Shown here one piece after another: positions 11,310-40,460 of a DNA stretch of 64,000 nucleotides. The notes under the pieces were generated by a model. The model was not told where the DNA came from, did not search any database, and saw only the letters and a program-made list of their open reading frames with translations. The translations under genes were made by a program, and so were the position numbers. The stretch's first letter is position 1. Every line of letters starts with the position of its first letter. This DNA comes from Minisyncoccia bacterium (GTDB lineage Bacteria; Patescibacteriota; Minisyncoccia; UBA6257; 2-01-FULL-56-20): the NCBI GenBank assembly GCA_050008535.1, contig JBEKML010000001.1:391050-455049 (forward strand), in the 5' to 3' direction.

Positions 11310-11340
11310 TAGCCGACCGCTTTTATGCTATAATGATCCT

Positions 11341-24667: not shown

Positions 24668-24712
24668 CGCTTTTAATTTTACTGGGCGCTCTGGCGGCTG
24701 GACGATGTGATC
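24668..24712 (+). repeat. tRNA-Asn-3'-end-derived repeat, copy A
   Basis: cgcttttaattttactgggcgctctggcggctggacgatgtga. Its end overlaps the stop of the minus-strand gene 24714..25076. Confidence 0.6.
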
Positions 24713-24713
24713 G

Positions 24714-25076
24714 TTATCCCTTCGCCCACGCAACAATCTCGTCAAGATCGGAGATTGATTTTGGATAGAAGATTTTTTTATGGTTGGCTTCGGCCCATTC
24801 TATCTCCGCAAGTGTCCCGCTTGATTTTTCCCATCCGGGGATTACGACCATAGCGTCGGATGCCCTCTGGAGCATTTGCATATCAAGCTCTTTATAAAAT
24901 TCCTCTGGCGCGGTGGTTCGCAACTCAAACCGTGCTGTGTGAAGATGCGGCCCAAAAAAGCCGACGCCGCGGTTAGCAAGGGCAATCGCAAAACTTTCCG
25001 CCTCGCGAATGTTCTTATCTATATTTCTTAGGTCGCCCCCGCCATAATAAGGCCCTGCGATAAAAACTATCTTCAT
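24714..25076 (-). CDS. DUF4406-like / nucleoside 2-deoxyribosyltransferase-fold protein (120 aa)
   Basis: MKIVFIAGPYYGGG...SGTLAEIEWAEANHKKIF. Only this C-terminal part of track ORF 24714..25868 looks like a real protein. Confidence 0.6.
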   Translation of the reverse strand: MKIVFIAGPYYGGGDLRNIDKNIREAESFAIALANRGVGFFGPHLHTARFELRTTAPEEFYKELDMQMLQRASDAMVVIPGWEKSSGTLAEIEWAEANHKKIFYPKSISDLDEIVAWAKG

Positions 25077-25181
25077 AAGGTCATTATAACAAATTTTACT
25101 TGACATACTATTCCCCGAATCGTACCCTGACCGCAGGTCATCCAATGTCCGAAATACGAGTTTTATGGAAAGGGGGAACCT

Positions 25182-25922
25182 ATGCATCCCAATCTCTCGC
25201 CTGCGCTTAACGCCGCAGTACAAGCAGGAACTGACAACCCCGGCATCGACATCAAGACCCAAGCGAGGGGAACGATGTTTGATGTCGTGAGTGGTCACAC
25301 CAAGTACACCATCGTCGTGGTTGATCCCGAAAAACAGGAGATCGCCATGGTAACCGACAACCACAAGATCTCGGGAACCGACCTCTGGTATTACATGGGT
25401 GCCGGTTGGGGCGGCAGCATGATGAAGGTCGGCTGGATCGTCGTCGGCGCCCAGATGCGGATGCGTCGCCTCTCTGGTGGCGCGATCGAGACAAGCCCCG
25501 TCAAGAACTTCTCGTTGCGCAACGAGCCTGAAGAGGCGAGGCGCATCATGGACGAAGCCGAATCCAGAAGGCCGCAGGTCATGACCGAGGATCAAGAACA
25601 CGACCAGGACGCTCAGTTCGCGGAGGCGGCCGAAGAGATCATCAAGGGAGAGTTTCCGCCCGATCAGCAGGGGTGGATTCGCGAGATGGTCGGTCATTTC
25701 GGCAACATCCCCGCGAAGGCAGTCGTGCTGGGGGTTGTTTCTCAAGCCCAGAAGCACGGCAAACTGGATAAGGCCAAGCAACTCCTCGAGCGCGACTGGG
25801 AGAGAGACTGGCGCTTCCAGCCTCCATATGCGGCAGGCGATCCCGAGTTCATGCCGCTCAACGCTCACCGCTGGAACGCACTCTACCGCGAGCTCGGGGT
25901 TCCGCTGCCGAGCCAGGAGTGA
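25182..25922 (+). CDS. hypothetical protein (246 aa)
   Basis: ORF with plausible composition; no family recognised. Confidence 0.5.
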   Translation: MHPNLSPALNAAVQAGTDNPGIDIKTQARGTMFDVVSGHTKYTIVVVDPEKQEIAMVTDNHKISGTDLWYYMGAGWGGSMMKVGWIVVGAQMRMRRLSGGAIETSPVKNFSLRNEPEEARRIMDEAESRRPQVMTEDQEHDQDAQFAEAAEEIIKGEFPPDQQGWIREMVGHFGNIPAKAVVLGVVSQAQKHGKLDKAKQLLERDWERDWRFQPPYAAGDPEFMPLNAHRWNALYRELGVPLPSQE

Positions 25923-26009
25923 ACACCTCGTTTCGGTTCGCGATCAAGATTTCAAATCAGGCGTCCGTCTCGGGATCCTCCGGGGCGCGGCGCCTTTTTC
26001 GTTTGGCCC

Positions 26010-26040
26010 CTCGGTCTGCTGGACGACGTTAGAACCTGTT
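26010..26040 (+). repeat. repeat copy B (internally deleted variant)
   Basis: ctcggtctg|ctggacgacgttagaacctgtt joins the flank-like CTCGGTCTG directly to the CTGGACGA..GAACCTG core. The stop of the minus gene follows 8 nt downstream. Confidence 0.55.
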
Positions 26041-26047
26041 TGGTGGC

Positions 26048-26485
26048 CTAGAACTTTGAATAAATGAGGAGGGAAATGATGATAAGGATAAGATACGGTA
26101 ACCCTACGTGCAAAAGCAGCATATTGCGGACGGCGTTTTTTTTGTCATGAACGGGAAGATTGGGAACCCGAAAATCTTTCGGCAGATCTTTCCCGGAAGA
26201 AAGCGCCTGTAGGGCGTGTTGGACTTCGTTGCGCCGCTTCTTATAGTCGGTGCGGTAGGTTTTGTTATATCCGTCGAAAAACCAGAAAATGAGGGGGACG
26301 AGGGCGCCGATGAGAGCTATTTGGCCCTGCTTGGATTGGAATGCCCAGCCCGCCAGGGCGACCCAAAGGGTTACCGCCCACGTTTTAGTGGTTATAGAAA
26401 GCTGGTCATACTTGTCCACCTGATTTTGCGTAAGGGAAAGCTCCGCCTTCAAAAGATCGTAACGGATGTCGGTGCGGGTTTCCAT
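26048..26485 (-). CDS. hypothetical membrane protein
   Basis: 145 aa with 3 predicted TM segments. Confidence 0.5.
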   Translation of the reverse strand: METRTDIRYDLLKAELSLTQNQVDKYDQLSITTKTWAVTLWVALAGWAFQSKQGQIALIGALVPLIFWFFDGYNKTYRTDYKKRRNEVQHALQALSSGKDLPKDFRVPNLPVHDKKNAVRNMLLLHVGLPYLILIIISLLIYSKF

Positions 26486-26529
26486 TCCTTAAGCATACCA
26501 CTAGACCTAGCTCATCGCTTCTATTGGTT

Positions 26530-26575
26530 GGCTTTGTCCGATACTTTTACTAGCTCCGACGGCTGGACACGGCTC
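26530..26575 (+). repeat. repeat copy C (with flank TTTGTCCGATACTTTTACT)
   Basis: ggctttgtccgatacttttactagctccgacggctggacacggctc, immediately followed by the stop of the minus gene 26577..26906. Confidence 0.6.
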
Positions 26576-26576
26576 C

Positions 26577-26906
26577 CTACTTGAGAGCGGGGAATAATTT
26601 GAGTATGTCCAGCGGATTGACGCCTTTGACCAGCGCGGCGATTACCACAATCAGAAGCGCTACGCCAAGATAATCGCTCCATTCCCACGTTATTTTGCCA
26701 TTATCAATCACAACCTTCAGAGTCTGCGCTCCTCGCCCTTGTGTCCCTTGGCTTTGCATCCTTCGGGTTGGCCAAAAGCCGACTACGGCGACCAGCACCA
26801 AAAGCAAGATCGCAATCAGGGGGGTTATGGACACGAAGCTGGAAAGTAGCCATAAAATAATGGCGGCAATCCCTGCACGGGAAGCGGAAAATTTTATTTT
26901 GCCCAT
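26577..26906 (-). CDS. hypothetical membrane protein
   Basis: 109 aa, TM-rich. Confidence 0.5.
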   Translation of the reverse strand: MGKIKFSASRAGIAAIILWLLSSFVSITPLIAILLLVLVAVVGFWPTRRMQSQGTQGRGAQTLKVVIDNGKITWEWSDYLGVALLIVVIAALVKGVNPLDILKLFPALK

Positions 26907-26950
26907 GTATTGCTAAAAGAGAATCAGATATAACCTCGGCCTTTGAGATT

Positions 26951-26992
26951 AGTATACCATTTGCTCCGGCGGCTGGACGATGTGAGAACCTG
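26951..26992 (+). repeat. repeat copy D (near-consensus)
   Basis: agtataccatttgctccggcggctggacgatgtgagaacctg, directly followed by TATAAT and the rdgB ATG (27005). Confidence 0.65.
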
Positions 26993-27004
26993 TATAATCA
27001 ATAT

Positions 27005-27610
27005 ATGAACAAGAAGCTGCTTATTGTCACTCACAATAAGGGAAAATTTCCCGAAATAATCTCTGAGCTTAAGGGCGTAGCTTTTGATTTTTTAAATTTA
27101 AACGATATTCCCTCTCTCCCGCCAAAATATGAAGTGGAGGAACCCGCGATGACCTTTGAAGGAAATGCCATTATCAAGGCCGTGATACTTGGCAAGAAAA
27201 CGGGACTTATAACTCTTGCCGACGATTCGGGGCTCGAAGTCGACGCATTAAATGGAAAACCCGGAATTTATTCTGCGCGTTATGCGCCAGGAACCGATGA
27301 AGATCGCTATCGAAAGCTTCTGGGCGAACTTAAGAATGTTCCCGACGATAGGCTCGGCGCTCAATTTCATTGCGTCGTTGCCATTTATGATCCTGCCACC
27401 GATAAAATCCGCACATGCGAAGGCGTCTATCGAGGGAGAATTATTCGAGCACCGAGAGGAACGAATGGTTTTGGCTACGACCCTATCTTTTTCAACGAGC
27501 AGCTAAACAAGACAAACGCAGAAATGACGGTTGATGAGAAAAATTCAGTAAGCCATCGCGGCACGGCATTGAGGAAGGCCCGCGAGATTTTAGAAAAAGA
27601 ATTTAGCTAA
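27005..27610 (+). CDS. rdgB: dITP/XTP pyrophosphatase (Ham1/RdgB family)
   Basis: LLIVTHNKGKF..E, ...DDSGLEVDALNGKPGIYSARY..., FGYDPIF..., HRG (Ham1 motifs). Confidence 0.85.
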   Translation: MNKKLLIVTHNKGKFPEIISELKGVAFDFLNLNDIPSLPPKYEVEEPAMTFEGNAIIKAVILGKKTGLITLADDSGLEVDALNGKPGIYSARYAPGTDEDRYRKLLGELKNVPDDRLGAQFHCVVAIYDPATDKIRTCEGVYRGRIIRAPRGTNGFGYDPIFFNEQLNKTNAEMTVDEKNSVSHRGTALRKAREILEKEFS

Positions 27611-27613
27611 TTT

Positions 27614-27645
27614 CCGCTCCGGCAGTTAGACGACATGAGAACCTG
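27614..27645 (+). repeat. repeat copy E
   Basis: cgctccggcagttagacgacatgagaacctg. Confidence 0.6.
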
Positions 27646-27725
27646 CGTGACTAAGAAATGATACTCAAACTGCCGCTGCTTGTTACTGCATCGGTCCCGC
27701 AACTGGAGCGTGGTATAATATAAAC

Positions 27726-28844
27726 ATGAAAAAATTCATCCTTGGTGTCGGTGTGGTTGCGGTGCTTGTGCCGTTCGTGTCGTTCGGGGCGTACAAAAGC
27801 GCAGGGAAGAGCGTGGTTTTGAATGCAACGCAGCCGATAAACGACAATGCCTATGTTGCCGGCGGAAACGTTATGACTTCAGGCGTCATAAACGGTGATC
27901 TTCTCGCGGCGGGTGGATCGGTATTTGTATCCGGGAAAGTGGTCCGGGACGTCATGGCGGCGGGAGGCAACGTCACGCTTTCGGGAGTTTCCGCGGAAGA
28001 CGTCCGCATCGCGGGAGGCAATCTTAACGTCAGCGCCGTCTTGAGCGGCGAGCTCATGGCTGGCGGCGGAGAGGTTATCGTCACGCCGGACTCCAGGATC
28101 ACGAAGGATTCTGTGGTCGCCGGGGGATCGGTAACCTTCAATGGTGACGAGGCCGGAAATCTTGAAGTGTACGGGGGATCGGTCTACATCGGCGGTACGG
28201 TTGAAAAGAATTTGACCATTAAAGGATCGAAGGACATCACGATCGGTTCGGGCGCAGTTATTAAAGGAAATTTGGATTACACAAGTGTGAACGACGCCAC
28301 GATCGAAAGTGGTGCGCGGATCCTTGGCGCAAAAACGTTCCATAAGGTTGAGGCAAGCGCGCCAACAAATGTAGCCGGGCCTCTCGCTGCAGTTTTCACT
28401 TTCTGGTGGATCGCAAAGTTCCTTATGGCCCTTCTTGTCGCGTATCTCCTTTGGTATCTTTTCCGAAGCGATATGGTTGCGCTCATTACGGAAGCCGGAT
28501 CGCATTTCGGCAGGGAACTGCTCCGCGGTTTCATCTTTGCCGTCGTAATGCCCATAGCGATCATCATTGCCTGTGTTACCGTGGTCGGAGCTCTGGTTGG
28601 CGGCATTGCGGCGCTCGTCTATGCGGCACTCATCCTCCTCGCGTTCCCCGTCGCGATTCTCGTTGTTGCGTCACTTTTGAGGAAACGCAGGACCGATCTC
28701 CACTGGTACGGCATTCTCCTTGCAGCAGTGATCCTTGAGATCGTCGCGCTCATTCCGTTCGTTGGCTGCGTTGCGTGTCTCATCATATGTCTCGCCTCCC
28801 TCGGCGCATTGCTCAATGTTTTGCGCCGCCGATTTGCACGGTAG
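27726..28844 (+). CDS. bactofilin-like beta-helix repeat protein with C-terminal multi-TM domain
   Basis: Signal/TM N-terminus, repeated A(A)GGNV/GGSV units typical of the bactofilin/CcmA fold, then 4 TM helices. Confidence 0.6.
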   Translation: MKKFILGVGVVAVLVPFVSFGAYKSAGKSVVLNATQPINDNAYVAGGNVMTSGVINGDLLAAGGSVFVSGKVVRDVMAAGGNVTLSGVSAEDVRIAGGNLNVSAVLSGELMAGGGEVIVTPDSRITKDSVVAGGSVTFNGDEAGNLEVYGGSVYIGGTVEKNLTIKGSKDITIGSGAVIKGNLDYTSVNDATIESGARILGAKTFHKVEASAPTNVAGPLAAVFTFWWIAKFLMALLVAYLLWYLFRSDMVALITEAGSHFGRELLRGFIFAVVMPIAIIIACVTVVGALVGGIAALVYAALILLAFPVAILVVASLLRKRRTDLHWYGILLAAVILEIVALIPFVGCVACLIICLASLGALLNVLRRRFAR

Positions 28845-28964
28845 GTAAAACTAGACGTTATACGCCAAAGCATAAATCTAATCGGCGCGAAAATGAGTAA
28901 GGCGCACATCCAGCCGGGCTGGGCGTGCGCCTTAGAATGGTACGAATGCGAACTGCGGCCGACG

Positions 28965-29333
28965 CTAGCGGCCGCTGGATGCGGCTTGTGAGTGCCACCG
29001 CCCCCTCTTTCGCCAGCTTGTTGACTCTTGCCCGGCGGGCGCGTATGCCTGGTGGTTCAGGCCGTGCGCATCGTGTCCGGGTTTTGGAATGTGGGGGATG
29101 CCGGCGACCTGTTCCGGACGGGCGCCGTCTGTCCGGAATAACATCCCACCGATCCATTCGAAGACGGCGGACGGGTCAGCGGCGCTGCGCTCCGCAAGTC
29201 TCTTGTACCGCTTGCGGCGAGCGAGGTAATGCTCCGGCCCTCGTTGCGGGTTCGCAGCGGTGCCTATCGGCTGTTCGGAAGCCGAACGGAAGAACTGTCC
29301 CATACCTACTCCTTCCTTGTGGTATTCGCCCAC
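28965..29333 (-). CDS. hypothetical protein (questionable)
   Basis: ORF in a high-GC patch; alternative start MGQFFRSA at about 29303. Confidence 0.25.
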   Translation of the reverse strand: MGEYHKEGVGMGQFFRSASEQPIGTAANPQRGPEHYLARRKRYKRLAERSAADPSAVFEWIGGMLFRTDGARPEQVAGIPHIPKPGHDAHGLNHQAYAPAGQESTSWRKRGRWHSQAASSGR

Positions 29334-29397
29334 AAGTTCTGGACGCTAAAACAATAGTACTCCTCCAGTACTGCCGCATCAAGCGATGCCGAATCCA

Positions 29398-29443
29398 GTG
29401 CTCTTACTCGGTGCTCCGGCGGCTGGACGATATGAGAACTTGT
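29398..29443 (+). repeat. repeat copy F
   Basis: cttactcggtgctccggcggctggacgatatgagaacttgt. Confidence 0.6.
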
Positions 29444-29578
29444 CTACTCACCTAAAATCGTCAACGTTGCTGATGATCTTAGGTGGATGGGCAGAGGCAG
29501 CATGAGTGATGCTGCGTGCCCATTGATGGGCGTGTTTCGCGTTAGCGGCAATCCGCGGGTTGCGGCTAATGGGGCCGG

Positions 29579-30097
29579 TCATTCCGTGCCCTTGCCCAGA
29601 AGTTTTAAGGCGCGGGAGATCCTCCTCTCGGTCATCGCCTTGTCGTGGGTGTGCGCGAGGTATGCAGCCCGAAGCGGTTCGGTCCCGACGAGCCTAATGG
29701 CAAAAGCGTCAGCCATCTGATCCTCATATTCTCTCTCGCGTGCATTCGGGTTGGGATTGCGAGCATTTCTCGCAATATGCCCAAGTTCGTGGGCGAGGGC
29801 TCCAATGAGAGCGGCGTTTGAAAAGCGGGTGAAGGTGAAGCGTGAAGCGACGATGGTCGTTGTCTTCCGTCGACGTGATGCCGCCACAAAAGAACGTTCG
29901 TCTCCTTCCTGCACGCAAAGCTGGATCGGCATCGCCTGACTGCCGATTTTGAGCTGTAGTGCTTCGAGAAGCGCGTACGCGCGATGTCCGCTCTCCAGAA
30001 GAACACGTCCTGGAAATTCTTGGGTGCATTCGGCTGTACCGGCGTGGGCGGAGTTTGCGGAAAAAAGGAGAAACACCAGAGCGGCCAACTTTTTCAT
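29579..30097 (-). CDS. secreted HExxH zinc metallopeptidase-like protein
   Basis: Signal peptide MKKLAALVFLLFSANSAHA; HELGH motif. Confidence 0.55.
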   Translation of the reverse strand: MKKLAALVFLLFSANSAHAGTAECTQEFPGRVLLESGHRAYALLEALQLKIGSQAMPIQLCVQEGDERSFVAASRRRKTTTIVASRFTFTRFSNAALIGALAHELGHIARNARNPNPNAREREYEDQMADAFAIRLVGTEPLRAAYLAHTHDKAMTERRISRALKLLGKGTE

Positions 30098-30136
30098 CTT
30101 AAGTCTCCTGCCCGAAGTTTAGCACAAGGCCTATGT

Positions 30137-30625
30137 CTAATCCATTATTTGCGCAAAAAGCACCACATAATTCTTGCCGTATGCTTTGGCGCACTTCGGA
30201 CAAGTGGTATAGGAAAAATATAATTTTTTTAATCCCTTGCCCTTGCTTTTTACATATTCTTTCATCTCCTGCGCCCACTTGCCGACATTTTGATAGGGGC
30301 CTTCAAATACTTTAGTAAGAAATGTTCCTGAAAGTGTTGCCATTTGCGCGCCCGGAACACCTCCGGAAGCATCAATGTAAATATCCGCACCCCAGAGAGA
30401 TTTCTCATCAGTTAACATTAATTGCTGTGGCGCTTTGGCGCTTGCTTTCTCGATCAGTTTCATATTCTTGACCACCTTTCTCCCCATGTTAATGGGAATG
30501 TGCAAAAAGCTGGTGACATGATCCTTCACAAAAATTTTATCTTTCCAGATGATCTTTTTGTCCCGCCACGGTTCAGGATTAAACGGCTCGCAGCAACCGG
30601 TTGATTTTATTGTTTGATTAGCCAT
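30137..30625 (-). CDS. hypothetical protein (162 aa)
   Basis: ORF with normal composition; no family recognised. Confidence 0.5.
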   Translation of the reverse strand: MANQTIKSTGCCEPFNPEPWRDKKIIWKDKIFVKDHVTSFLHIPINMGRKVVKNMKLIEKASAKAPQQLMLTDEKSLWGADIYIDASGGVPGAQMATLSGTFLTKVFEGPYQNVGKWAQEMKEYVKSKGKGLKKLYFSYTTCPKCAKAYGKNYVVLFAQIMD

Positions 30626-30667
30626 ACCCTTATTCTACCAAAAAACCGCCCGATTAACGATTTTTAT

Positions 30668-30700
30668 TTGCTCCGGCGGGGCTGGAGGACGTTAGAACCT
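30668..30700 (+). repeat. repeat copy G
   Basis: ttgctccggcggggctggaggacgttagaacct, then TATAAT (30709-30714) and the ATG at 30727. Confidence 0.6.
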
Positions 30701-30726
30701 TTATTTGTTATAATCAAAAATATTGA

Positions 30727-31770
30727 ATGAATAGGATCTTCTTGGGTTTGTTGATTTTTGTGCCGCTTGCTATAGCAGCCCATTTTCTCGCCATCTCTCC
30801 GGTCGTTGTTTTCTTTTTGTGTGCTCTTGGCATCATTCCGCTTGCAAAATTCATTGGCGAAGCCACCGAAGAATTGTCCGTTCACGTGGGGTCGGCCCTT
30901 GGCGGATTGCTTAATGCGACTTTCGGTAACGCAACGGAGTTGATCATTGGGATATTCGCGATTAGAGCGGGGCTCATAGAAGTCGTAAGAGCGTCGCTAA
31001 CTGGTTCCGTTATCGGAAATCTGTTACTGGTGCTTGGCACCGCAATGTTTGCGGGAGGTCTCCGCCATAAAAAGCAGGAATTTAACAGGACTGCAGCGGT
31101 AGCGAGCGGGAGCTCTCTTTTTCTTGCGGTCATAGCGCTTGTTATTCCGACGATATTTCTACAGACTCTTTCGGCGGCGAACAGCGGCCTGATCAATGAA
31201 ATTAGTTGGATAATATCTCTTCTCATAATTGCCCTCTATGCTGCGGGATTATGGTTTTCGCTCTTTACGCACAAACACCTTTACACCGAAGAGGTTGGCA
31301 AGCTGGAAACGAAGTGGAGCACAAAAAAGAGCATCTCGATTCTGCTTGTCGCAACGCTTGCAGTCGCGTGGGTGAGCGAGATCCTGGTAGGCTCCATCGA
31401 GCCGCTTATCGCGCGTTTTGGGTGGACAGAGCTCTTCTTGGGAGTGGTATTTATCGCTATCATAGGCAACGCTGCAGAGCACGTCTCCGCGATTTCGATG
31501 GCAGTCAAAAATCGGATGGATCTTGCCCTTCAGGTTTCCATCGGTTCCGCAACACAGATCATTATGTTCGTCACGCCGTTTCTCGTGATCATCAGTTTGT
31601 TTTTCCCAACGCCGATGCCTTTGATATTCAAAATGCTGGAGATGGCCTCGATCGTCCTGTCGGTGGTCCTGATCAATCTCATAATAGCTGACGGGGAGAG
31701 CAATTGGCTCGAGGGATTGCAGCTTCTTGTGGCGTACGCCATCATGGCCGTCGCCTTTTTCTTTTCTTGA
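30727..31770 (+). CDS. Ca2+/H+ antiporter (CaCA family)
   Basis: Two GNATE/GNAAEH alpha-repeat motifs (FGNATELIIGI, IIGNAAEHVSAI); about 10 TM. Confidence 0.85.
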   Translation: MNRIFLGLLIFVPLAIAAHFLAISPVVVFFLCALGIIPLAKFIGEATEELSVHVGSALGGLLNATFGNATELIIGIFAIRAGLIEVVRASLTGSVIGNLLLVLGTAMFAGGLRHKKQEFNRTAAVASGSSLFLAVIALVIPTIFLQTLSAANSGLINEISWIISLLIIALYAAGLWFSLFTHKHLYTEEVGKLETKWSTKKSISILLVATLAVAWVSEILVGSIEPLIARFGWTELFLGVVFIAIIGNAAEHVSAISMAVKNRMDLALQVSIGSATQIIMFVTPFLVIISLFFPTPMPLIFKMLEMASIVLSVVLINLIIADGESNWLEGLQLLVAYAIMAVAFFFS

Positions 31771-31781
31771 GGAAGCAAAAA

Positions 31782-31812
31782 AACATCAGCTTTCGCTGAT
31801 GTTCGTCCTTTT
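31782..31812 (+). terminator. rho-independent terminator after CaCA gene
   Basis: aacatcagc tttc gctgatgtt followed by cgtccttttct. Confidence 0.5.
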
Positions 31813-31845
31813 CTGCTCCGGCAGCTGGACGACGTTAGAACCTGT
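31813..31845 (+). repeat. repeat copy H
   Basis: ctgctccggcagctggacgacgttagaacctgt; the stop of the minus gene lies 10 nt downstream. Confidence 0.6.
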
Positions 31846-31855
31846 CCGAGTTAGC

Positions 31856-32152
31856 TTACTTGTTCCCAGCCAGTAAAAGTTCTCTCACTTTTTTCCTGAG
31901 GCCGCCGGTCCTCGTAATACTATTTATATATATGGGTATAGGTGCCTTACGGGCATTTTCAATGCGCGTTTTAAGTTCGTTCGCAGAATAGGTTTTGTGA
32001 CCCCCCCGCAATTCTCCGATTTGATCGAGCGCGGTATATAGTTCATGGAAGTCCCGCGCCTCAGTAATAGATGGAAATTCATTTTCTTCTTGCGGGATGC
32101 GAGATGGCGTTTCTTCGGGGTCTTCCATCGCCGGTATTTGCTCGTGGTCCAT
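31856..32152 (-). CDS. hypothetical protein (98 aa)
   Basis: ORF only. Confidence 0.4.
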   Translation of the reverse strand: MDHEQIPAMEDPEETPSRIPQEENEFPSITEARDFHELYTALDQIGELRGGHKTYSANELKTRIENARKAPIPIYINSITRTGGLRKKVRELLLAGNK

Positions 32153-32170
32153 ATTCTTATTATACCTATT

Positions 32171-32752: not shown

Positions 32753-32804
32753 AGGACAAGTATATCGCCTTTTGCTACGCGGTGCGATTTATAGCTTGGG
32801 ATAC

Positions 32805-33809: not shown

Positions 33810-33827
33810 ACAAAGCTATTCTACCAG

Positions 33828-33870
33828 AATTTGCTCCGGCGGCTGGAGGATATGAGAACCTATTCTGTCT
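33828..33870 (+). repeat. repeat copy I
   Basis: tttgctccggcggctggaggatatgagaacctattctgtctgg. Confidence 0.6.
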
Positions 33871-33884
33871 GGGCCGCCGCTTTT

Positions 33885-34016
33885 TGTTAAAACAAAAGCC
33901 GATAGATGATCACAATAAGAGCAATCACAAGCAGTACATGAATCAATTTTCCCCCAATTTTGAAGCCGAATCCCAATAGCCAAAGAACGAATAAAACTAT
34001 AATGATTGTCCAAAGC
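33885..34016 (-). CDS. small membrane protein, UPF0391/DUF1328-like (43 aa)
   Basis: Own translation: MLWTIIIVLFVLWLLGFGFKIGGKLIHVLLVIALIVIIYRLLF. Not in the track, which shows a different-frame ORF 33816..34013. Confidence 0.45.
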
Positions 34017-34069
34017 ATATTTTTATTTCACCACCTTAAATGAAGCTACGGCGCCCGGGGGGATGTCGG

Positions 34070-34633
34070 CTATTTTGGTAGTGGTGAGTTAGGAAGAATA
34101 TTCGTCATATCGCTAAAAGTGATCCCTGCAGGAAGAGCGAATACGCTCGCGTTCGTGGTCCAATTACTACAGGAGTAATTAACTTTCTTATTCGGGTCGA
34201 ATCCCTGATTCGGGCCTGGGCCTTGCTGGTTCTCGGTCGTCGCGAGGGCCATTTTAACGCCCTCCTTTGTGGCGTCGGTCCACACGTAGCTCGTGTTGCC
34301 CAAGATGATCATGTGGCTCCCGATGGCCTTGCCCGAAACGACGGAAGTGAAATCACCCCGCAGTTGTCCCTGCGCCACATAGACGGTTCCCTCCGATGAG
34401 GCCGTGAGGCTCGTGGCATCGGTGAACGTGCATTTTTGGGAAGAGCCCAGGGCGAGCAATCCTTTAAGCGTCATGCCGCTTGCCGAGGATGGGGGAGGCG
34501 TGGTCCCGGGGGCTCCCGGGGTTCCTGCAGTTTGAGACGTTCCCGGCGTGGAAGATGGTTTGTAAAATATGAACATTGCGGCGGCGGCGACCACGACGAC
34601 GGCAATGAGCACGTATATTAGTTTTTTATTCAT
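34070..34633 (-). CDS. hypothetical secreted protein (membrane-anchored, Pro/Thr-rich linker)
   Basis: N-terminal TM helix followed by a PGTSQTAGTPGAPGTTPPPS linker. Confidence 0.5.
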   Translation of the reverse strand: MNKKLIYVLIAVVVVAAAAMFIFYKPSSTPGTSQTAGTPGAPGTTPPPSSASGMTLKGLLALGSSQKCTFTDATSLTASSEGTVYVAQGQLRGDFTSVVSGKAIGSHMIILGNTSYVWTDATKEGVKMALATTENQQGPGPNQGFDPNKKVNYSCSNWTTNASVFALPAGITFSDMTNILPNSPLPK

Positions 34634-34690
34634 AGATTTAAGTATAGCATGTTGGCTATTCGTTTCTTACCCACAGGTTTCATTATGGCC

Positions 34691-34748
34691 CTTGGTCTGT
34701 CCGATACTTTTACTCGGTGCTTCAGCGGCCGGACGATGTTAGAACCTG
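34691..34748 (+). repeat. repeat copy J (full length with flank)
   Basis: cttggtctgtccgatacttttactcggtgcttcagcggccggacgatgttagaacctg. The TTAGAA inside supplies the TAA stop and the last codons (..NRF*) of the minus gene 34739..35257. Confidence 0.65.
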
Positions 34749-35257
34749 TTTCCTGCGAGTTTTTTAACTGCCTCGATAAATGATTTCTTTCCGGCGGTAT
34801 ATTGCTCTCTGTCGTTTGGGTATTGCTTGGCAAGCCGTTGTTTCAAGTGAGCATAGGCCTTGGTCTTAGAGGGATGCGTTCTTAGAAAGTCACGGAATAA
34901 GAGATCGCTTTTCCATTTCGAGCCGTTATATTTCATAACATGAAGATAATGTGTCCGTTTTTTATCCGGACCTTTGGCGAAGAGGACCTGCCTCCTGAAT
35001 TTTCGGTAGAAGTGGTAACCCATCTCATCCAATGGTTTCACTAGTTTTTTCACATCCTTCAGCCGTCGCAGCCCGGCCGACATATCGATAATAGGCTTGG
35101 CATGCAATCCAGGAATCGCCGTGCTGCCGACATGTTGGATATCAACGACCATATCTCCTACGTGCGCAAGGAGTTTTTTCTTTTCACGTTCGAACGCAAC
35201 CTTCCATTGTTTGTGATATAGGATCAACTTAACCGTTCCGCGTTTAAGGCCGATCAT
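34739..35257 (-). CDS. GrpB family protein (UPF0157)
   Basis: HVGSTAIPGLHAKPIIDM motif; 172 aa. Confidence 0.75.
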   Translation of the reverse strand: MIGLKRGTVKLILYHKQWKVAFEREKKKLLAHVGDMVVDIQHVGSTAIPGLHAKPIIDMSAGLRRLKDVKKLVKPLDEMGYHFYRKFRRQVLFAKGPDKKRTHYLHVMKYNGSKWKSDLLFRDFLRTHPSKTKAYAHLKQRLAKQYPNDREQYTAGKKSFIEAVKKLAGNRF

Positions 35258-35283
35258 GTTTTTATATTATCACGAAAATTCTC

Positions 35284-35314
35284 CGCTCCGGCAGCTGGAC
35301 GATGTGAGAACCTG
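35284..35314 (+). repeat. repeat copy K
   Basis: cgctccggcagctggacgatgtgagaacctg. Confidence 0.6.
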
Positions 35315-35375
35315 GTTAGGGGTCAGCTAGGGGGGGCGTCGTAGACTATGTTCGAACGATTTTGGTTTACCAATC

Positions 35376-37634
35376 CTATCGAGGCAGTCCCTGAAGTTTT
35401 TGGAGCGTCAACATTAAAGATTGCAAAGATTCCAAGATGTTGGCGAGTTGTGCTGATCTTCCCAAAGATGACTGCATCTCAACTAGCGTAAACGTGCTCA
35501 CATGCCAATAGGCCGCATACTGGGAACCGAACGCGGCTTCGCAGGTTGCGAGCGTTTTCCCTATGCCGCAGACGCTGTCAAGATTCTCGTAATAGTTTGT
35601 TGTTTCATCAACAAAAACCGTATAGGTGCCACTGCTCAGTGAGCCTATGTTGGGCGAGGTAATGGTGTAGCTCGTAGTAGAATCCGGCACAACCATTGCT
35701 TGATTGTTCAAAGAAACACCTGACGGGTCGAAAACGTGGACGGACCAGTAGCCCGGTCCTTGCCAACCGCTCATGGAAGGAACGTTCACGAGCGTCGTGC
35801 TGGATGCCGAGATATACGAAGCGTCGAAAGGGGATCTAGCATTGACCGGGGAGGGGTATACACCCATACCTATTGCGGATGAAGTTGCCTGAAGATGGTA
35901 GTCAGTGGTTGAAACAAACCGGGGATCGGCATCAATATTATTCGATCCGCCAGACCATCCTCCAATGTCTGAATTGCTGATATTATAAGTGGGAGAAAGT
36001 ATAGTACTAACTCCTTCGTTGTTATAGTAGGTAATGTTTGAAATACTAAAATTGGGACTGCTGTTCCCCCAAAGAATTGAGTTGGACATCTGCAGGTTTC
36101 CCGATGTGTCCATTCCGCTATGGTTATTGCCGGCCACGGTAACATAGGTAAATAACGCGATCGACGAGGGATCACTCACTGGCACGCCATTTTTGAAAGA
36201 GGAACCGCTATCTATGGACACGCCGCCTCCAAAATTCGAAGCCTGGTTGTTATCAATGAGACAATGGTCAACGGTAACGTAGGTACTATCGTACAACAAA
36301 GCCATCCCGCCGCCACTGACGGCGCGATTACCGGTAAGACGGCATGACTCCAATGTTATATTGTTCGAGCCCAATATTAGGATTCCTCCTCCGATGTCGT
36401 TATTTGCACCACTGTTTTTTACGGTAAGATTCTCAATAATGGCGTATGAAACATTTTCCGCGCGAATCCCATTGGTGCCGCTTTTTGTAATGATTGTTTG
36501 ATCAATTCCAGCACCTTCAAGGCAGACGCCGCTTTTCATAATGAGGTTCTCGTTATAAGTTCCCGCAGCTACTCGAATAGTATCTCCCGTATTCGCAGCA
36601 TTAATTGCAGCCTGAATACTTGAATAGTCGCCGGGGACATTTTTGATCGTCTGATCGCAAACAGGGAATGCAGTTGCTGTAATTGGGCTTGCCTGCGTTG
36701 TGGCAGACGCTTGGTTCGACTGGCCCGAAACATTTCCTGCGGCGTCATAAGCAGCGACGGTGTAGGTGTAGGCGGTGGAAGCCTGAAGGCCGCTATCTGA
36801 ATAGGAAGATGTTGCAGATGCGGTTGACGCAGAGGTCGTTGCAATTTGCGCACCGCCCCGATAAATTCTGTATCCAACTACCCCAACGTTATCGGTGGAA
36901 TTCAACCAGGAAAGATTTATTTGGCTCGGTGAAGCGGCGGCAGCAGAAAGATTAGTGGGTACTGAGGGAGCCGTCGTGTCTGTGGAGGTAGCAGTCAATG
37001 GCGGTGGAGTCGATGGCGGAGGAGCTGTCCCACCACCTCCACCTCCACCACCACCTCCGCCACCGCCACCACCCGTTGAGGGTGTGGCTGGCGTGACAAG
37101 AATCGCAGGCGTCGCCGGCGTCGCAGGGGTCGCTGGCGTAGCAGGAACCAGCCCTGACGGCGTGGGGCTGCTGGCAGACGTAAGACCTGGCGGGATTACG
37201 CCCGATTGTCCAGCGCCAGTCGTTACCAACTCGTTAAGTTTCGCTTGGGTTTTTGGCCCTACGATACCAACAGACTCAATGCCATTCTGTCCCTGGAATT
37301 TTTTAACCGCTACCTCCGTAAGCGGACCGAAGTATCCAGTTACCAATCCTTCGGGATACACATCGGGGAAGGTTTTCAGAAACTCCTGCAGTTGTTTTAC
37401 GTCGTCGCCGGTAGTTCCCTGCGTTAAGACCCTGCTAAACTTGAGTTCTGTTTTCACGGATTGTACTTGATTCTGAAGATCCACTACTTGTGCCTGTAGT
37501 GATTGTACCTGCGCTTGGAGTTGTTTTATGGTGTCGAGCAGATCCTGATTCGTCGAGGTCCCATTTTGAGCAAAAGCAGCATTAAAGAACAAAAGGCCGA
37601 CAAGGATTCCCCCCGTCAAGACTTTATTGAACAT
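35376..37634 (-). CDS. large secreted surface protein: coiled coil, PG-binding domain, Pro/Gly tract, FN3, right-handed beta-helix repeats
   Basis: Start MFNKVLTGGILVGLLFFNAAFA (signal peptide) chosen inside track ORF 35376..37787. Contains a PG_binding_1-like segment (DDVKQLQEFL...GYFGPLTEVAVKKFQ), (PAT)x5-PPPPPPP-G14 low complexity, an FN3-like unit, and NxxGxxxxG beta-helix-like repeats. Confidence 0.7.
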   Translation of the reverse strand: MFNKVLTGGILVGLLFFNAAFAQNGTSTNQDLLDTIKQLQAQVQSLQAQVVDLQNQVQSVKTELKFSRVLTQGTTGDDVKQLQEFLKTFPDVYPEGLVTGYFGPLTEVAVKKFQGQNGIESVGIVGPKTQAKLNELVTTGAGQSGVIPPGLTSASSPTPSGLVPATPATPATPATPAILVTPATPSTGGGGGGGGGGGGGGGTAPPPSTPPPLTATSTDTTAPSVPTNLSAAAASPSQINLSWLNSTDNVGVVGYRIYRGGAQIATTSASTASATSSYSDSGLQASTAYTYTVAAYDAAGNVSGQSNQASATTQASPITATAFPVCDQTIKNVPGDYSSIQAAINAANTGDTIRVAAGTYNENLIMKSGVCLEGAGIDQTIITKSGTNGIRAENVSYAIIENLTVKNSGANNDIGGGILILGSNNITLESCRLTGNRAVSGGGMALLYDSTYVTVDHCLIDNNQASNFGGGVSIDSGSSFKNGVPVSDPSSIALFTYVTVAGNNHSGMDTSGNLQMSNSILWGNSSPNFSISNITYYNNEGVSTILSPTYNISNSDIGGWSGGSNNIDADPRFVSTTDYHLQATSSAIGMGVYPSPVNARSPFDASYISASSTTLVNVPSMSGWQGPGYWSVHVFDPSGVSLNNQAMVVPDSTTSYTITSPNIGSLSSGTYTVFVDETTNYYENLDSVCGIGKTLATCEAAFGSQYAAYWHVSTFTLVEMQSSLGRSAQLANILESLQSLMLTLQKLQGLPR

Positions 37635-37649
37635 ATGTTTATTATAACA

Positions 37650-37682
37650 CGCTCCGGCGGCTGGACGATGTGAGAACCTGTT
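37650..37682 (+). repeat. repeat copy L (consensus)
   Basis: cgctccggcggctggacgatgtgagaacctg lies between the start of 35376..37634 and the stop of 37693..39483. Confidence 0.65.
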
Positions 37683-37692
37683 TAAGAAGGGA

Positions 37693-39483
37693 TTATGCCA
37701 CTTCTGCTTGGTAGCACTGCTCGCAGTAGACGATTTCCGGGCGGTCGGGGGCATAGGTGGTTTCGAATTTGTTGGGGCAGGGTTCACTACCGTGAAAATG
37801 AGAGGCGGTATTTATGTAGCTACTTGCCTTTACTCCAGCGCATGCGCACGTACGCTTATAAAGCTGCGGAACATTGCGCCAGCTGATACGCTCTACGTGG
37901 CGGCAATTGAAACACAGCTTCGGCAACGGCAAATTCATTTTCCTATAGAACTGCAATTCTTGCTGAGTGATGCGGAAAACCGTAGGACAATTAGCTCCAC
38001 ATTGGAGTCCGGCATGATCGCCGGTTTCGTCGTGCTTGCACTGGACTATCTCTTGTATGATGTCGTCACCAGTTTCGGCAATGGTGTCGGGCAAGGCGGA
38101 AGCGGCCTTGGTTGGTTCATATTTTCTCTTCTCGGGAACGCGCCAGTTGAACCCCATGTGCTCAACTTGACTCCTCGGAAGTTGAAAATATTCGTATGCT
38201 TGGGATTCATTGAACCCGAAAGGGCTCATGTCGGGCGGGAAAAACTCGCCGTATTTATATATCCTACCCAGCGTATCTACGTAGGGCGTCTCGTTCATAT
38301 GCGCGATGATCTTTGGAATAAGTGATTCGTATTGTTCTTTAGAATACTGCTTATTGAGGATGCAATACTGCGCATTGCGCAGCCCCACGCAGCCGAACAC
38401 TTCCCGCGAGTTGCGGCATGTTATGGAATATCGTACATCGCTCACTGTTTCGCAATCGAACGAAAAATATACTCCGCGCAGGCCTTGTCCGCAGCAGCTT
38501 ATTTCGTAGTTGCGCTCAATATCGACGCCTGAGGAGGTAACGTCCATGCAGTCCCGAATCGGATTGTAGATGACGCTTTGGCAATGTGTGCAGTTTTGCA
38601 CCTCATTCGTAAAAAAACAATTGCGCACCTGGGAGGAGTTGTATATGTAATCACCGGTGCAACCCGCGTCCTGCAGCCCGTGCCGAAAACGGAACGGAAA
38701 CGAAAGCCAAATCCTCTCCGCCTCTTTTTGCATTCTTTCCAATCCCAGCCTTGAATGCAGGTTGAATCCCGCCACTTTTTTTCTATAGTTTTCTTTCGAA
38801 TGCGGCTGGTTAAAAATGTAGTAACTTTTGTTGCGCAAGCCGGTACACCCCACGCAATCGTTGCACCCAACACAATCCTGGCTGAACCATACCTCACGGC
38901 AGCCGGTACAATTCCTGGAAAAGAAGGTCTTATAACAGTTCGTGGTGTTAATCACGTAATAGCAGAGTTCACACAGTTTACAATTGATAGTGTCAAAACA
39001 TTGCTTGCTCTTTTGTAGGGTAACCCCATATGCACTGTCTTCAGAAAACCCTGCATCGAAGCATAGATATGTATTTTTCATATCCAGACCCATGCTGTAA
39101 TCGCTGTTTACCTGGTTGCGGGACATGATGTAGGTGAATGGCATAACATTGAACAAATCCCGTATTTGATCGAAAAACGGCCGCGTAAAATCATATTCCC
39201 GCGCATACGATTTAGGATCCCAAGCGTCGCTCCACCAGTAGTCTCGATCGAAAGGGGGCATGGGCGCATTGGGGGGCACCATGCTGAAAATTTTTTTGCC
39301 AGTGCCAGCGCAGGTGCGTTCGTAAAGATAACGGAAGTTGCGAAACGCCATCCGCCGCATGGCCCGGCATTTCCAGCACCATGTTGGTGGAGGCACGTTG
39401 AGGCTTTTATAGAACGTAAGATCTTCTGGCTCAATCGCAAAATTATTTTTGCAGTTCTGACACGCGCGCGTTTCCTGTTCCAT
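37693..39483 (-). CDS. cysteine-rich protein with N- and C-terminal FmdB-like zinc-ribbon motifs (paralog A)
   Basis: 596 aa. N-terminal CQNCKNNFAIEPEDLTFYKSLNVPPPTWCWKCRAMRRMAFRN; the same motif recurs near the C-terminus. Central Cys repeats (CTGCREVWFSQDCVGCNDCVGC...). The last 23 aa, ETTYAPDRPEIVYCEQCYQAEVA, are identical to paralog 58255..60072. Confidence 0.7.
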   Translation of the reverse strand: MEQETRACQNCKNNFAIEPEDLTFYKSLNVPPPTWCWKCRAMRRMAFRNFRYLYERTCAGTGKKIFSMVPPNAPMPPFDRDYWWSDAWDPKSYAREYDFTRPFFDQIRDLFNVMPFTYIMSRNQVNSDYSMGLDMKNTYLCFDAGFSEDSAYGVTLQKSKQCFDTINCKLCELCYYVINTTNCYKTFFSRNCTGCREVWFSQDCVGCNDCVGCTGLRNKSYYIFNQPHSKENYRKKVAGFNLHSRLGLERMQKEAERIWLSFPFRFRHGLQDAGCTGDYIYNSSQVRNCFFTNEVQNCTHCQSVIYNPIRDCMDVTSSGVDIERNYEISCCGQGLRGVYFSFDCETVSDVRYSITCRNSREVFGCVGLRNAQYCILNKQYSKEQYESLIPKIIAHMNETPYVDTLGRIYKYGEFFPPDMSPFGFNESQAYEYFQLPRSQVEHMGFNWRVPEKRKYEPTKAASALPDTIAETGDDIIQEIVQCKHDETGDHAGLQCGANCPTVFRITQQELQFYRKMNLPLPKLCFNCRHVERISWRNVPQLYKRTCACAGVKASSYINTASHFHGSEPCPNKFETTYAPDRPEIVYCEQCYQAEVA

Positions 39484-39518
39484 TACCTCAATTCTATCAG
39501 ATTAAAAAAATCGTACGT

Positions 39519-39590
39519 CTCTCGGTCTGTCCGATACTTTTACTGGGTGCTCCCCAAGTCGGACTTGAATTTTTTGGGGCAAGTCCCACA
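39519..39590 (+). repeat. repeat copy N (most tRNA-trailer-like, degenerate core)
   Basis: ctctcggtctgtccgatacttttactgggtgctccccaagtcggacttgaa. The first 20 nt almost match the tRNA-Asn trailer ctctcggtcggtccgatact at 40353-40372. Confidence 0.55.
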
Positions 39591-39660
39591 AGCGTCCCCA
39601 GAGAATCCTTTGAGGGGAGGGGAATAACACACCTCGGTCGCAAAATGATACAATCACAAT

Positions 39661-40329
39661 GTGAATATAGAATGGAACAGGGTCACGTGGTATTCAAAAC
39701 TGGTTGCCATAGTCGTTTTTATTGGAACTGCCGCGCTATTCTTTTTCTTTGGCGAAATATATGGAAGAACACTGGGTCAGATCGGCATCTCTCAGCTTTC
39801 ATCTGGGACTACCCCTTTGTCGGCGTCACTAAATCGGACGACTGGGACAGCTGTCGCCACTGGATCTCAACCTCTGCAAATTGATCTTCCGTTGGGAGAT
39901 TCTGGATATGAGGCGGTGGCTGAACGTGCCAAGCAGAAATGCGGTCAAAACGTTCAGCTGGCAGGAACAAGCGTACAGGTCGATCAAGAAACGGGAGGAT
40001 TTTTTACCTACTATTCGTTTCGTGGGAATTGTTATTCGGAAGTTAAGATCGACCCTTATCACAGACCGGACCCGAGCGATCCTATTGTGACGAATATCGC
40101 AAAAGATAATTTCATACCCATTCCTCTTTCGGATTGGAAAATTAGCGCCAAACAAGCGCTTTCGATTGCAGGCATGGGAAACGGATCGGCGCTGAATCTT
40201 TCCGAAGAAAGTAACACCCTGGTTTGGGCGATAACCTATAGGAATGAGTACGCTCTTTCCGAAGCACGCGTCAATGCCTCAACGGGAGAGTTGATCAGCA
40301 AACAAACGACCAGACTCCCGATCTATTGA
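39661..40329 (+). CDS. hypothetical membrane-anchored protein
   Basis: N-terminal TM helix, then a soluble domain. TACAAT-like -10 at about 39636. Confidence 0.5.
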   Translation: MNIEWNRVTWYSKLVAIVVFIGTAALFFFFGEIYGRTLGQIGISQLSSGTTPLSASLNRTTGTAVATGSQPLQIDLPLGDSGYEAVAERAKQKCGQNVQLAGTSVQVDQETGGFFTYYSFRGNCYSEVKIDPYHRPDPSDPIVTNIAKDNFIPIPLSDWKISAKQALSIAGMGNGSALNLSEESNTLVWAITYRNEYALSEARVNASTGELISKQTTRLPIY

Positions 40330-40388
40330 TTGGATGTTCGCGTCTCCACGGACCGCCTCTCGGTCGGTCCGATACTAAATGTTGCCTG

Positions 40389-40460
40389 CTCCGGCGCCAG
40401 GACTCGAACCTGGAACCATCTCCTTAACAGGGAGCCGCTCTACCATTGAGCTACGCCGGA
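40389..40460 (-). tRNA. tRNA-Asn (anticodon GTT)
   Basis: Reverse complement tccggcgtagctcaatggtagagcggctccctgttaaggagatggttccaggttcgagtcctggcgccggag folds as a cloverleaf: acceptor TCCGGCG/CGCCGGA, D-arm GCTC-AATGGTA-GAGC, anticodon loop CU-GUU-AA, T-arm CCAGG-TTCGAGT-CCTGG, discriminator G. CCA is not encoded. Confidence 0.85.

Follow-up and report, generated by a model that had tools for sequence, protein, structure and literature searches.

Integration of large serine recombinase elements at a tRNA-Asn gene as the probable origin of a repeat array in a Minisyncoccia bacterium

Introduction

Tandem accretion at tRNA genes by tyrosine integrases is a feature of the cis-mobilizable elements (CIMEs) that lie next to integrative and conjugative elements (ICEs). 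The tycheposons of Prochlorococcus, which also depend on tyrosine integrases, accrete in tandem at tRNA genes and leave behind partial repeats and degenerate remnants that carry cargo (10.1101/2020.12.28.424599). For the archaeal integrases of the SSV type, passages of one account (PMC8371274) place the phage-type attachment site (attP) within the int gene and name tRNA genes as targets. The locus discussed here belongs to a Minisyncoccia bacterium and was studied in a stretch of 64,000 nucleotides (GenBank assembly GCA_050008535.1, contig JBEKML010000001.1, positions 391,050 to 455,049 of the forward strand), hereafter the window, in which a short repeat, called the core, recurs over some 16 kb downstream of a tRNA-Asn gene. 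Our best explanation, to which we assign a probability of about 85%, is that this region is an integration hotspot, or genomic island, built downstream of tRNA-Asn by small integrative elements that use one family of large serine recombinases (LSRs).

An array of cores oriented toward tRNA-Asn

The tRNA-Asn(GTT) gene, at 40388/9-40460 on the minus strand, was called by both ARAGORN and Rfam and is the only tRNA that ARAGORN reports in the window. The Rfam scan of the window returned tRNAs only, including a second, weak one (33.4 bits) at 1680-1753 on the plus strand, which ARAGORN did not call and which overlaps the end of a minus-strand open reading frame (ORF) at 1691-2284.

A 30-mer consensus of the core gives six plus-strand matches with up to three mismatches, whereas 100 shuffles give none. 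According to a search for repeats, a relaxed scan that allowed mismatches and a position weight matrix (PWM) scan, the cores start at 24688 (truncated), 26009, 26553 (left half only), 26963, 27616, 29413, 30672 (with a 2-nt insertion), 31815, 33833, 34719, 35285 and 37651, with a divergent copy at about 39545. This amounts to 13 copies (11 clear and 2 degenerate) on the plus strand between 24.7 and 39.6 kb, all of them oriented toward tRNA-Asn(GTT). On the minus strand, and outside 24.6-39.6 kb of the window, the relaxed scan found no cores beyond chance-level matches with 11-12 mismatches. An earlier reading made from the letters of this DNA (the sequence-only reading) had described such an array of same-orientation repeats ending at tRNA-Asn, and these scans, together with the two tRNA calls, confirm it.

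Conservation of the core extends over about 32 nt (T/C-GCTCCGGCGGCTGGACGAYRTKAGAACCTGT) and stops abruptly at both edges. With the 3' end of the tRNA the core shares a 9-nt identity (GCTCCGGCG) as well as GAACCTG, and a subset of cores has an extra left motif of about 30 nt, called P-left (CCTCTCGGTCTGTCCGATACTTTTACTCGGT). Three sites, at 26530, 34686 and 39516, have the flank motif (C)TCGGTCTGTCCGATACTTTTACT, and two, at 24669 and 29398, have part of it; the motif also forms the trailer of the tRNA-Asn gene itself (40354-40387). Both the identity with the tRNA 3' end and that of flank and trailer had been rightly recognized by the sequence-only reading.

Relation of the core to a large serine recombinase gene

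An exact core was found in a metagenome contig (L031), inside the 3' end of a 562-aa ORF (1267-2955) with the domains Resolvase (PF00239), Recombinase (PF07508) and Zn_ribbon (PF13408), whose last residues are ...SQSMLRRLDDVRTIVQRQTNYIYIPDLSPQA before the stop codon. By its domains this protein is classed as an LSR, and its relatives in PDB, which are distant ones, are the integrases of SPbeta and A118. Read in frame, the core encodes (M)LRRLDDVRT, after which the L031 ORF runs through ...IVQRQTNYIYIPDLSPQA to its stop codon.

Variation among the cores is codon-like. In 55 distinct cores the entropy at codon positions 1, 2 and 3 of the LSR frame is 0.42, 0.25 and 0.59, respectively, and there are 66 synonymous codon differences in this frame versus 24 and 27 in the other two, among them the exchange of the leucine codon CTG for TTA. 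In addition, two cores of the related contig JBEKRC010000003.1 (JB) are still trailed by the remaining LSR tail (e.g., LRRVEDVRTRIEEQKGYIYIPDLRPEA), and the left motif matches the upstream coding sequence of such genes: the trailer motif and the LSR coding sequence of contig L052 have ACTTTTACTCG in common at the corresponding position, L052 reading CACTTTTACTCG-ACTTGTCACCCT-TTGCTCC and the left motif ACTTTTACTCG-GTGCTCC. Because of the codon-like variation, the continuation into the tail and the match of the left motif, the core is to be regarded, on sequence comparison, as part of a recombinase gene, and not as a decayed T-arm of the tRNA as had been supposed, with its right half being the attP arm. 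The attP site would thus lie within the last ~30 codons of the LSR gene, with a left half-site that encodes ...FY.xSPxML, a right half-site that encodes ...LDDVRT plus a short tail, and a crossover region that mimics the acceptor 3' end of the tRNA (GCTCCGGCG...).

The structure of the core also bears on the notion that the repeats are attC sites recombined by the tyrosine recombinase IntI, as in a classical integron or in a cluster of attC sites lacking integron-integrases (CALIN). Repeats in one orientation between small, promoter-poor modules do recall such arrays, and GTTAGAA is superficially like the R' box GTTRRRY; however, the GTT varies, with GTG or ATG in some copies, no core has a consistent inverted-repeat partner within 200 nt, and the single-strand folds of three sites, on both strands, are no better than those of shuffles (z +0.2 to +1.3). 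No match to IntI or Phage_integrase turned up between 12.6 and 51 kb of the window or in those related arrays that were searched, and the core is LSR coding sequence. We consider this explanation extremely improbable; the integron analogy offered by the sequence-only reading does not extend to the structure of the site, and folding, which it had proposed as a check, yields for the three sites no more than shuffles do.

Junctions at tRNA-Asn and the proposed course of integration

Of 8,000 candidates scored in a protein search with the L031 LSR, 6,671 matched at E <= 1e-10, and the few source names among the 120 best matches are all of the Patescibacteria type. The C-termini of these 120 best homologues include the following classes:

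Antisense tRNA (DSN/ESN, T-loop reverse complement): at least 66 of 120.
QDSNLEP[SY]P: 6 of 120 (five ...QDSNLEPSP, one ...LEPYP).
LD[DE]VRT, in which the 'P tail' is kept: 15 of 120.

The ending ...QDSNLEPSP, followed by a stop codon, is also the translation of the window plus strand across the 3' half and the anticodon loop of tRNA-Asn. The LSR C-termini that are fused to antisense tRNA-Asn read ...LRxQDSNLEPSP before the stop codon, which is equal to the antisense reading of the window apart from one variable residue. In more than half of the database ORFs of the family (P0001-P0120), the last 10-25 residues are encoded by antisense tRNA, for example DSNLEPSP or DSNQDTRLQRAMSYH.

Contigs from related genomes provide the junctions themselves. 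In L052 the LSR ORF overlaps tRNA-Asn by 40 nt, with SpoU, DUF192 and GAPDH in the flank as in the window, and in L055 tRNA-Asn is fused to an LSR that has 94% identity with the one of L031. The DNA of L031 and L055 is 89% identical up to TGCTCCGGCGGYTGGA and then splits, into the tail in L031 and into the T-arm in L055, which would locate the crossover within TGCTCCGGCGGYTGGA, and probably within GCTCCG. A recombination directionality factor (RDF) was not among the genes identified. In L091 and L094 a core-type junction, oriented as the LSR, is found 7.3 and 7.7 kb upstream of the junction between LSR and tRNA-Asn; upstream and downstream junctions have CTCCGC or GCTCCG in common, and between them lie the cargo, small backbone genes (HTH_36, SpoVG-like) and the LSR. 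Judging by these paired junctions, L091 and L094 are complete integrated elements with both attL and attR; no attL of the L052 and L055 elements was found within the contig DNA. L031 represents the attP-type state and L052, L055, L091 and L094 the attR junctions, and a gene with the LSR domain set was found in related contigs only, the window having none.

These elements (L055 6107-11644; L052 3658-8205; L091 3040-7463) have a small backbone in common, in which genes for a DUF5659 or SpoVG-like protein, for an HTH_36 protein and in some cases for an IstB/DnaA-like ATPase precede the LSR gene, and their cargo is of the defence type (Mrr, restriction-modification methylase/ResIII, Fic, RadC). 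Viral contigs contained neither an exact core nor a close LSR relative; a profile search of them returned a single LSR at 52% identity, on an IMG/VR contig of 12.8 kb, and otherwise matches to the N-terminal two-thirds only, at 37-43% identity.

The comparison of these junctions places attP inside the recombinase gene and assigns attB to the 3' end of tRNA-Asn, attR to the fusion of LSR and tRNA, and attL to the core. Because the cores of the window have the same structure and orientation as the attL of the complete L091 and L094 elements, they are identified as attL-type junctions, composed of a left flank, the tRNA acceptor end and the right half of attP. Accordingly described, integration at the tRNA 3' end would leave the LSR gene fused to antisense tRNA (attR) and would set the right half-site, and then the cargo of the element, at the far junction (attL). 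Each insertion would enter beside the tRNA and push older material outward, creating a series of same-orientation attL junctions, and the 13 junctions of the window would have arisen from successive insertions. The junctions and related features of the window, from the tRNA to the distal end of the array, are as follows:

40388-40460, minus strand: tRNA-Asn(GTT), the putative attB; crossover region at its 3' end, 40388-40396 on the plus strand (GCTCCGGCG), which in the recombinase frame reads LLRRQDSNLEPSP and stop in antisense.
40354-40387, plus strand: trailer that the tRNA now has (cgcctctcggtcggtccgatactaaatgttgcct), taken to be the P-left half-site, a recombinase 3' coding remnant of the last insertion.
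39516-39580, plus strand: copy N, P-left motif with a different right half (GCTCCCCAAGTCGGACTTGAA..., LPKSDLN...) that matches the second tail class, of LSRs L057 and P0017.
37650-37681, plus strand: core K, attL-type junction, LRRLDDVRTC.
35284-35315, plus strand: core J, from the PWM and 30-mer scans.
34686-34749, plus strand: core I, with complete P-left motif; attP-like site of ~62 nt.
33832-33863, plus strand: core H, from the PWM and 30-mer scans.
31814-31845, plus strand: core G, from the PWM and 30-mer scans.
30671-30702, plus strand: core F, with a 2-nt insertion that breaks the frame.
29398-29443, plus strand: core E, with partial P-left motif; right breakpoint of a strain-level replacement.
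27615-27646, plus strand: core D, in which the leucine codon CTG is changed to TTA (synonymous).
26962-26993, plus strand: core C, the consensus without any mismatch.
26530-26570, plus strand: copy B2, P-left motif with the left half of the core only.
26008-26039, plus strand: core B, left part eroded.
24669-24717, plus strand: copy A, partial P-left motif and truncated core; distal end of the array.

That a new module was inserted at the tRNA-proximal position is shown by the comparison of JB with OY970175.1 (OY), a related complete chromosome of 899 kb. In OY the tRNA is followed by a four-gene ArsR/thioredoxin/permease/rhodanese module, and only then comes the module that in JB is nearest the tRNA, with the older junction kept behind the insertion; this four-gene OY module has the left motif on its tRNA side and contains no LSR. 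In the window, the erosion of the distal copies A, B and B2 is consistent with their greater age. The sequence-only reading had described a similarity to the tRNA that falls with distance; the PWM scores give a different picture, in which copies C to K are equally attP-like, visible erosion is limited to the three most distal copies and copy F, and copy N is of another tail class. Since the right half of copy N matches this second class, more than one LSR subfamily appears to have used tRNA-Asn. Stacked att junctions left by repeated site-specific insertion at the 3' end of tRNA-Asn, which had been suggested earlier, are therefore supported, and the recombinase and mechanism that had been given as unknown can be narrowed down to a family whose members are fused to tRNA-Asn and whose gene ends in the core (L031).

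Related arrays and variation among strains

A degenerate core pattern matched only 12 stretches across 185,579 species (one genome each), most of them from two Minisyncoccia (Patescibacteria) assemblies. OY has eight exact matches, seven of which are within 20 kb downstream of tRNA-Asn, and the weight-matrix scan found at least 14 cores downstream of tRNA-Asn in OY and at least 14 in JB. The gene across the tRNA from the array (window 40521-41162) is 58-62% identical in these relatives, and the genes that follow it in synteny could be recovered from JB alone; its conserved 213-aa product was considered as a hidden recombinase and rejected, being a signal-anchored, secreted-type protein with no Pfam match. 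Almost no module genes are common to the three genomes, and just two modules are shared between genomes. Counting copies genome-wide and comparing orthologous tRNA-Asn loci had both been proposed as checks: the copies gather at the tRNA-Asn locus instead of being scattered, and arrays are present in the relatives with hypervariable module content. Hypervariable modules and confinement to the tRNA-Asn locus rule out both a dispersed family of repetitive extragenic palindromes (REP) or miniature inverted-repeat transposable elements (MITE) and an ancient, fixed gene order.

A repeat of the REP/MITE kind, a terminator or an operator that acts at the level of RNA or transcription and has nothing to do with recombination would agree with the position of the core, mostly 0-60 nt past the stop codon of a same-sense gene, and with the few isolated intergenic copies found elsewhere (L004, L012). 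It is contradicted by the lack of a hairpin and of a T-run in the core, by promoter and terminator scans of the array that remain at shuffle level, by the codon-like variation, by the near-total confinement to the tRNA-Asn locus in the complete relative and by the rarity of the pattern among species genomes, and it is judged very unlikely. The TGnTATAAT boxes seen beside some cores are an unquantified impression, with promoter counts at shuffle level.

The metagenome scan revealed that further lineages have arrays too, namely L048/L037/L032, L050, L039 and, with tRNA-Asn, L030/L046. In L050 (815-5076) seven cores have an identical right half (GGACGATGTTAGAACCTGT) and differing left parts (e.g., ATCTGCGGGTCGT), and in L033 a core (8633-8664) follows tRNA-Tyr in the same orientation rather than the opposite one. 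JB contains near-empty units of ~100 nt, formed by a right half, a spacer and a left half; at 4388-4653 of its locus L009, three cores within 270 nt, with spacers of ~40-100 nt, resemble att sites stacked without cargo. In OY (L008 943-1160, chromosome positions ~520943-521160) the anticodon loop of tRNA-Asn is interrupted by ~210 nt, with a full-length but weak match to a group I intron (22.6 bits, E 0.0015, below the gathering threshold), and for this reason ARAGORN missed the gene. In the OY array only a transposase gene of the IS481 family (rve) turned up, beside a core (L001 1000-1950, minus strand), and it was judged to stem from the unrelated, probably independent insertion of an insertion sequence.

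Other samples yielded contigs of this same population, and these follow the window colinearly with over 99.5% identity, except at window 28846-29434, which in L022 (16260-16736) and L025 is replaced by an unrelated sequence of 477 nt. The right breakpoint lies inside core E, of which L022 retains only ...GCTTAGAACCTGT, and the left one coincides with the stop codon of the adjacent gene, where there is no core; each version carries a different small minus-strand ORF with its own ribosome-binding site.

Cargo modules and the nature of the mobile unit

24714-40329, both orientations: 13 cargo modules of one to three genes each, between successive junctions (Pfam).

The functions of the module genes are accessory and mutually unrelated. 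The modules encode a DUF7768/deoxyribosyltransferase-like protein; two small membrane proteins; Ham1 (plus strand); a DUF8173 protein (plus strand) with a small ORF; an unknown protein with Bact_hydrolase; a CaCA exchanger (plus strand); an unknown protein with NUDIX and APH; a 187-aa protein with a 43-aa lmo0937-like protein; GrpB; a PG_binding/fn3 surface protein; a 596-aa protein; and a 222-aa protein (plus strand). The lmo0937-like small membrane protein is encoded by an unlisted 43-codon gene at 33888-34019 on the minus strand (MLWTIIIVLFVLWLLGFGFKIGGKLIHVLLVIALIVIIYRLLF), and in JB an 88%-identical homologue (L003 4903-5068) adjoins the last core of the array, where the surrounding module is a different one. 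Two neighbouring genes of window 10977-11745, one cupin-like (11221-11745) and the other for a small membrane protein, are outside the array in this genome, and their homologues directly adjoin cores in two other Patescibacteria genomes (L010 2029-2494; L001 4019-4375).

No recombinase was found in the array by Pfam, in Pfam of 12.6-51 kb or by tblastn of the whole window, as the sequence-only reading had also noted, and Pfam found no element backbone genes in the window modules. The tblastn search with LSR sequences covered the window and the array-bearing loci, that is, ~70 cores or junction intervals from at least six lineages.

Several observations weigh against the proposed origin of the island. 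With nine LSR sequences as tblastn queries, no LSR gene, pseudogene or fragment was detected in the window or in the array-bearing loci examined, and backbone genes are absent from them as well. Most window cores have arbitrary left flanks, whereas canonical LSRs require two defined half-sites. The sole strain-level polymorphism has only one breakpoint in a core and hence is not a clean site-specific event. Finally, related genomes have isolated cores with high scores that are not at tRNA-Asn (L004 4902-4933; L012 3078-3109, the same as L040 4377-4408), one of them between convergent genes 12 kb from the OY array and the other 30 nt past a stop codon in another JB contig. A further near-perfect isolated core (L002 5576-5607, the same as L047) comes from a contig that was placed in a Candidatus Ratteibacteria bin, and this points to either misbinning or transfer across phyla. 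No recombinase was found near the isolated cores of L004, L012 and L002.

The absence of LSR remnants from all arrays examined means that the simple decay of complete elements is not an easy explanation. We favour a model in which the modules lack a recombinase because the backbone that bore it was transient, having left or been lost. Excision via an inner attL would leave the outer modules behind and give the tRNA an arbitrary trailer, and excision via an outer attL would take up modules as passengers. Alternatively, modules may have been delivered as recombinase-less passengers or mini-elements with only a ~62-bp att site, the enzyme acting in trans. Several junctions are complete attP-like sites of ~62 nt with a sharply bounded left motif, and others have arbitrary left flanks.

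This alternative can be taken further, to recombinase-less mini-elements, made of a right half-site, cargo and a left half-site of ~30 nt, that are inserted and excised singly as circles by an LSR in trans. Such a system would be a functional analogue of the integron that runs on a serine recombinase and has a tRNA in the place of attI, and it overlaps with the explanation given above, from which it differs only in the mobile unit. The complete attP-like sites with a sharp left motif and no recombinase gene (copies I, N and B2), the latest OY insertion with its left motif on the tRNA side, the near-empty JB units and arrays devoid of LSR remnants all speak for it. The left motif, however, is missing from most window modules (C, D, F, G, H, J and K), which could not act independently as attP; neither a circular cassette nor a presence/absence difference of a single module was seen among the contigs of the same population; and LSRs are not known to act on sites of this type that lack both half-sites. 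We hold this proposal to be less likely than not, and the same applies to its broader form, in which a serine-recombinase platform of the Patescibacteria might capture, stack and release at tRNA genes recombinase-less modules with a ~62-bp site derived from the 3' end of the recombinase gene itself, while short-lived small elements would bring in the enzyme in trans. If this were true, one tRNA locus would be the main portal for accessory genes in genomes of ~0.9 Mb.

Somewhat less likely still is that each module is the cargo end of a once complete LSR element whose backbone and recombinase were lost by ordinary deletion in a streamlined genome. Complete elements (L091, L094 and L055) do have their cargo at attL and the backbone and LSR at the tRNA, so that a tRNA-proximal deletion would leave attL and cargo, and the distal copies A, B and B2 are eroded. 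This origin would nevertheless need at least 13 independent deletions per genome, which erased a 1.6-kb gene entirely and spared the 32-nt core and, in several instances, exactly the same left motif of ~30 nt, and tblastn detects no LSR fragments.

Significance

The integration of LSR elements at tRNA-Asn would put a name to the enzyme that shaped a striking, hypervariable locus of uncultured and ultra-small bacteria of the candidate phyla radiation (CPR), whose routes of gene gain are poorly understood. The LSR family itself is very large, apparently undescribed, and seems to target tRNA 3' ends. Its att sites can be read from the C-terminal coding sequence, which would provide ready-made attP/attB pairs for a class of enzymes that is valued in genome engineering. 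There is also an annotation artefact to consider, since many database recombinase ORFs finish in antisense-tRNA codons, from which integration targets could be read in protein sequences. The recombinase-free arrays raise the testable question of whether a cassette system can be run by serine recombinases.

Comparison with known systems

A full-text literature search, whose coverage is incomplete and whose negative outcome is absence of evidence only, returned no account of tRNA-targeting LSRs or of such arrays in Patescibacteria. The serine integrases (SPbeta SprA/YokA, A118, phiC31, Bxb1) have the same combination of Resolvase, Recombinase and Zn-ribbon domains, the L031 LSR being related to those of SPbeta and A118, and they also have attP at the integrase gene and hybrid attL and attR sites that flank their elements. 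They differ in that the target here is the 3' end of a tRNA and not a protein-coding or intergenic site, attP lies inside the ORF, so that integration swaps the last ~25 residues for others encoded by antisense tRNA, and the sequence common to attP and attB is up to 16-17 nt long rather than just a few nt; in addition, the left half of attB seems unconstrained and the junctions pile up as long arrays. SSV-type integrases share the att site embedded in the recombinase ORF, its match to a tRNA gene and the alteration of the ORF by integration, but they are tyrosine recombinases of archaeal viruses whose gene is split into two large parts, whereas the exchange here affects a serine recombinase, and of it only a short C-terminal tail.

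With integrons and CALINs the locus has in common a one-ended, hypervariable array of small, mostly single-gene, unrelated accessory modules with one recurring site in the same orientation, and, with CALINs, the absence of a recombinase. Its site is a plain sequence of the double-strand type, with no attC palindrome or fold, the enzyme is of another class, the anchor is a tRNA gene rather than attI/intI, and the modules occur in both orientations. The core is unlike the palindromic, dispersed unit of REP and MITE families: it has no fold, and no copy is found elsewhere in the window.

Tycheposons and CIMEs resemble the locus in entry on the side of the tRNA, the outward push of older units and recombinase-less remnants that form a flexible island. 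Partial copies of the tRNA 3' end separate their units; the repeat here has 9 nt (GCTCCGGCG) plus GAACCTG in common with this tRNA, the remainder being recombinase-gene sequence. In contrast to tycheposons and CIMEs, the enzyme linked to the site is a serine and not a tyrosine recombinase, the repeat consists largely of coding sequence from the attP arm and has no more than ~9-16 nt of tRNA, and the units are of 0.1-2.4 kb with one to three genes and without integrase fragments in the ~70 junction intervals. Taken together, these comparisons indicate that tandem integration at a tRNA is a known principle, and that what is new is the use of a serine recombinase, the att site in its coding tail and the integron-like arrays made of cargo only; also distinctive are the swap of the C-terminal tail on integration, the regular and very small modules and the complete absence of recombinase remnants.

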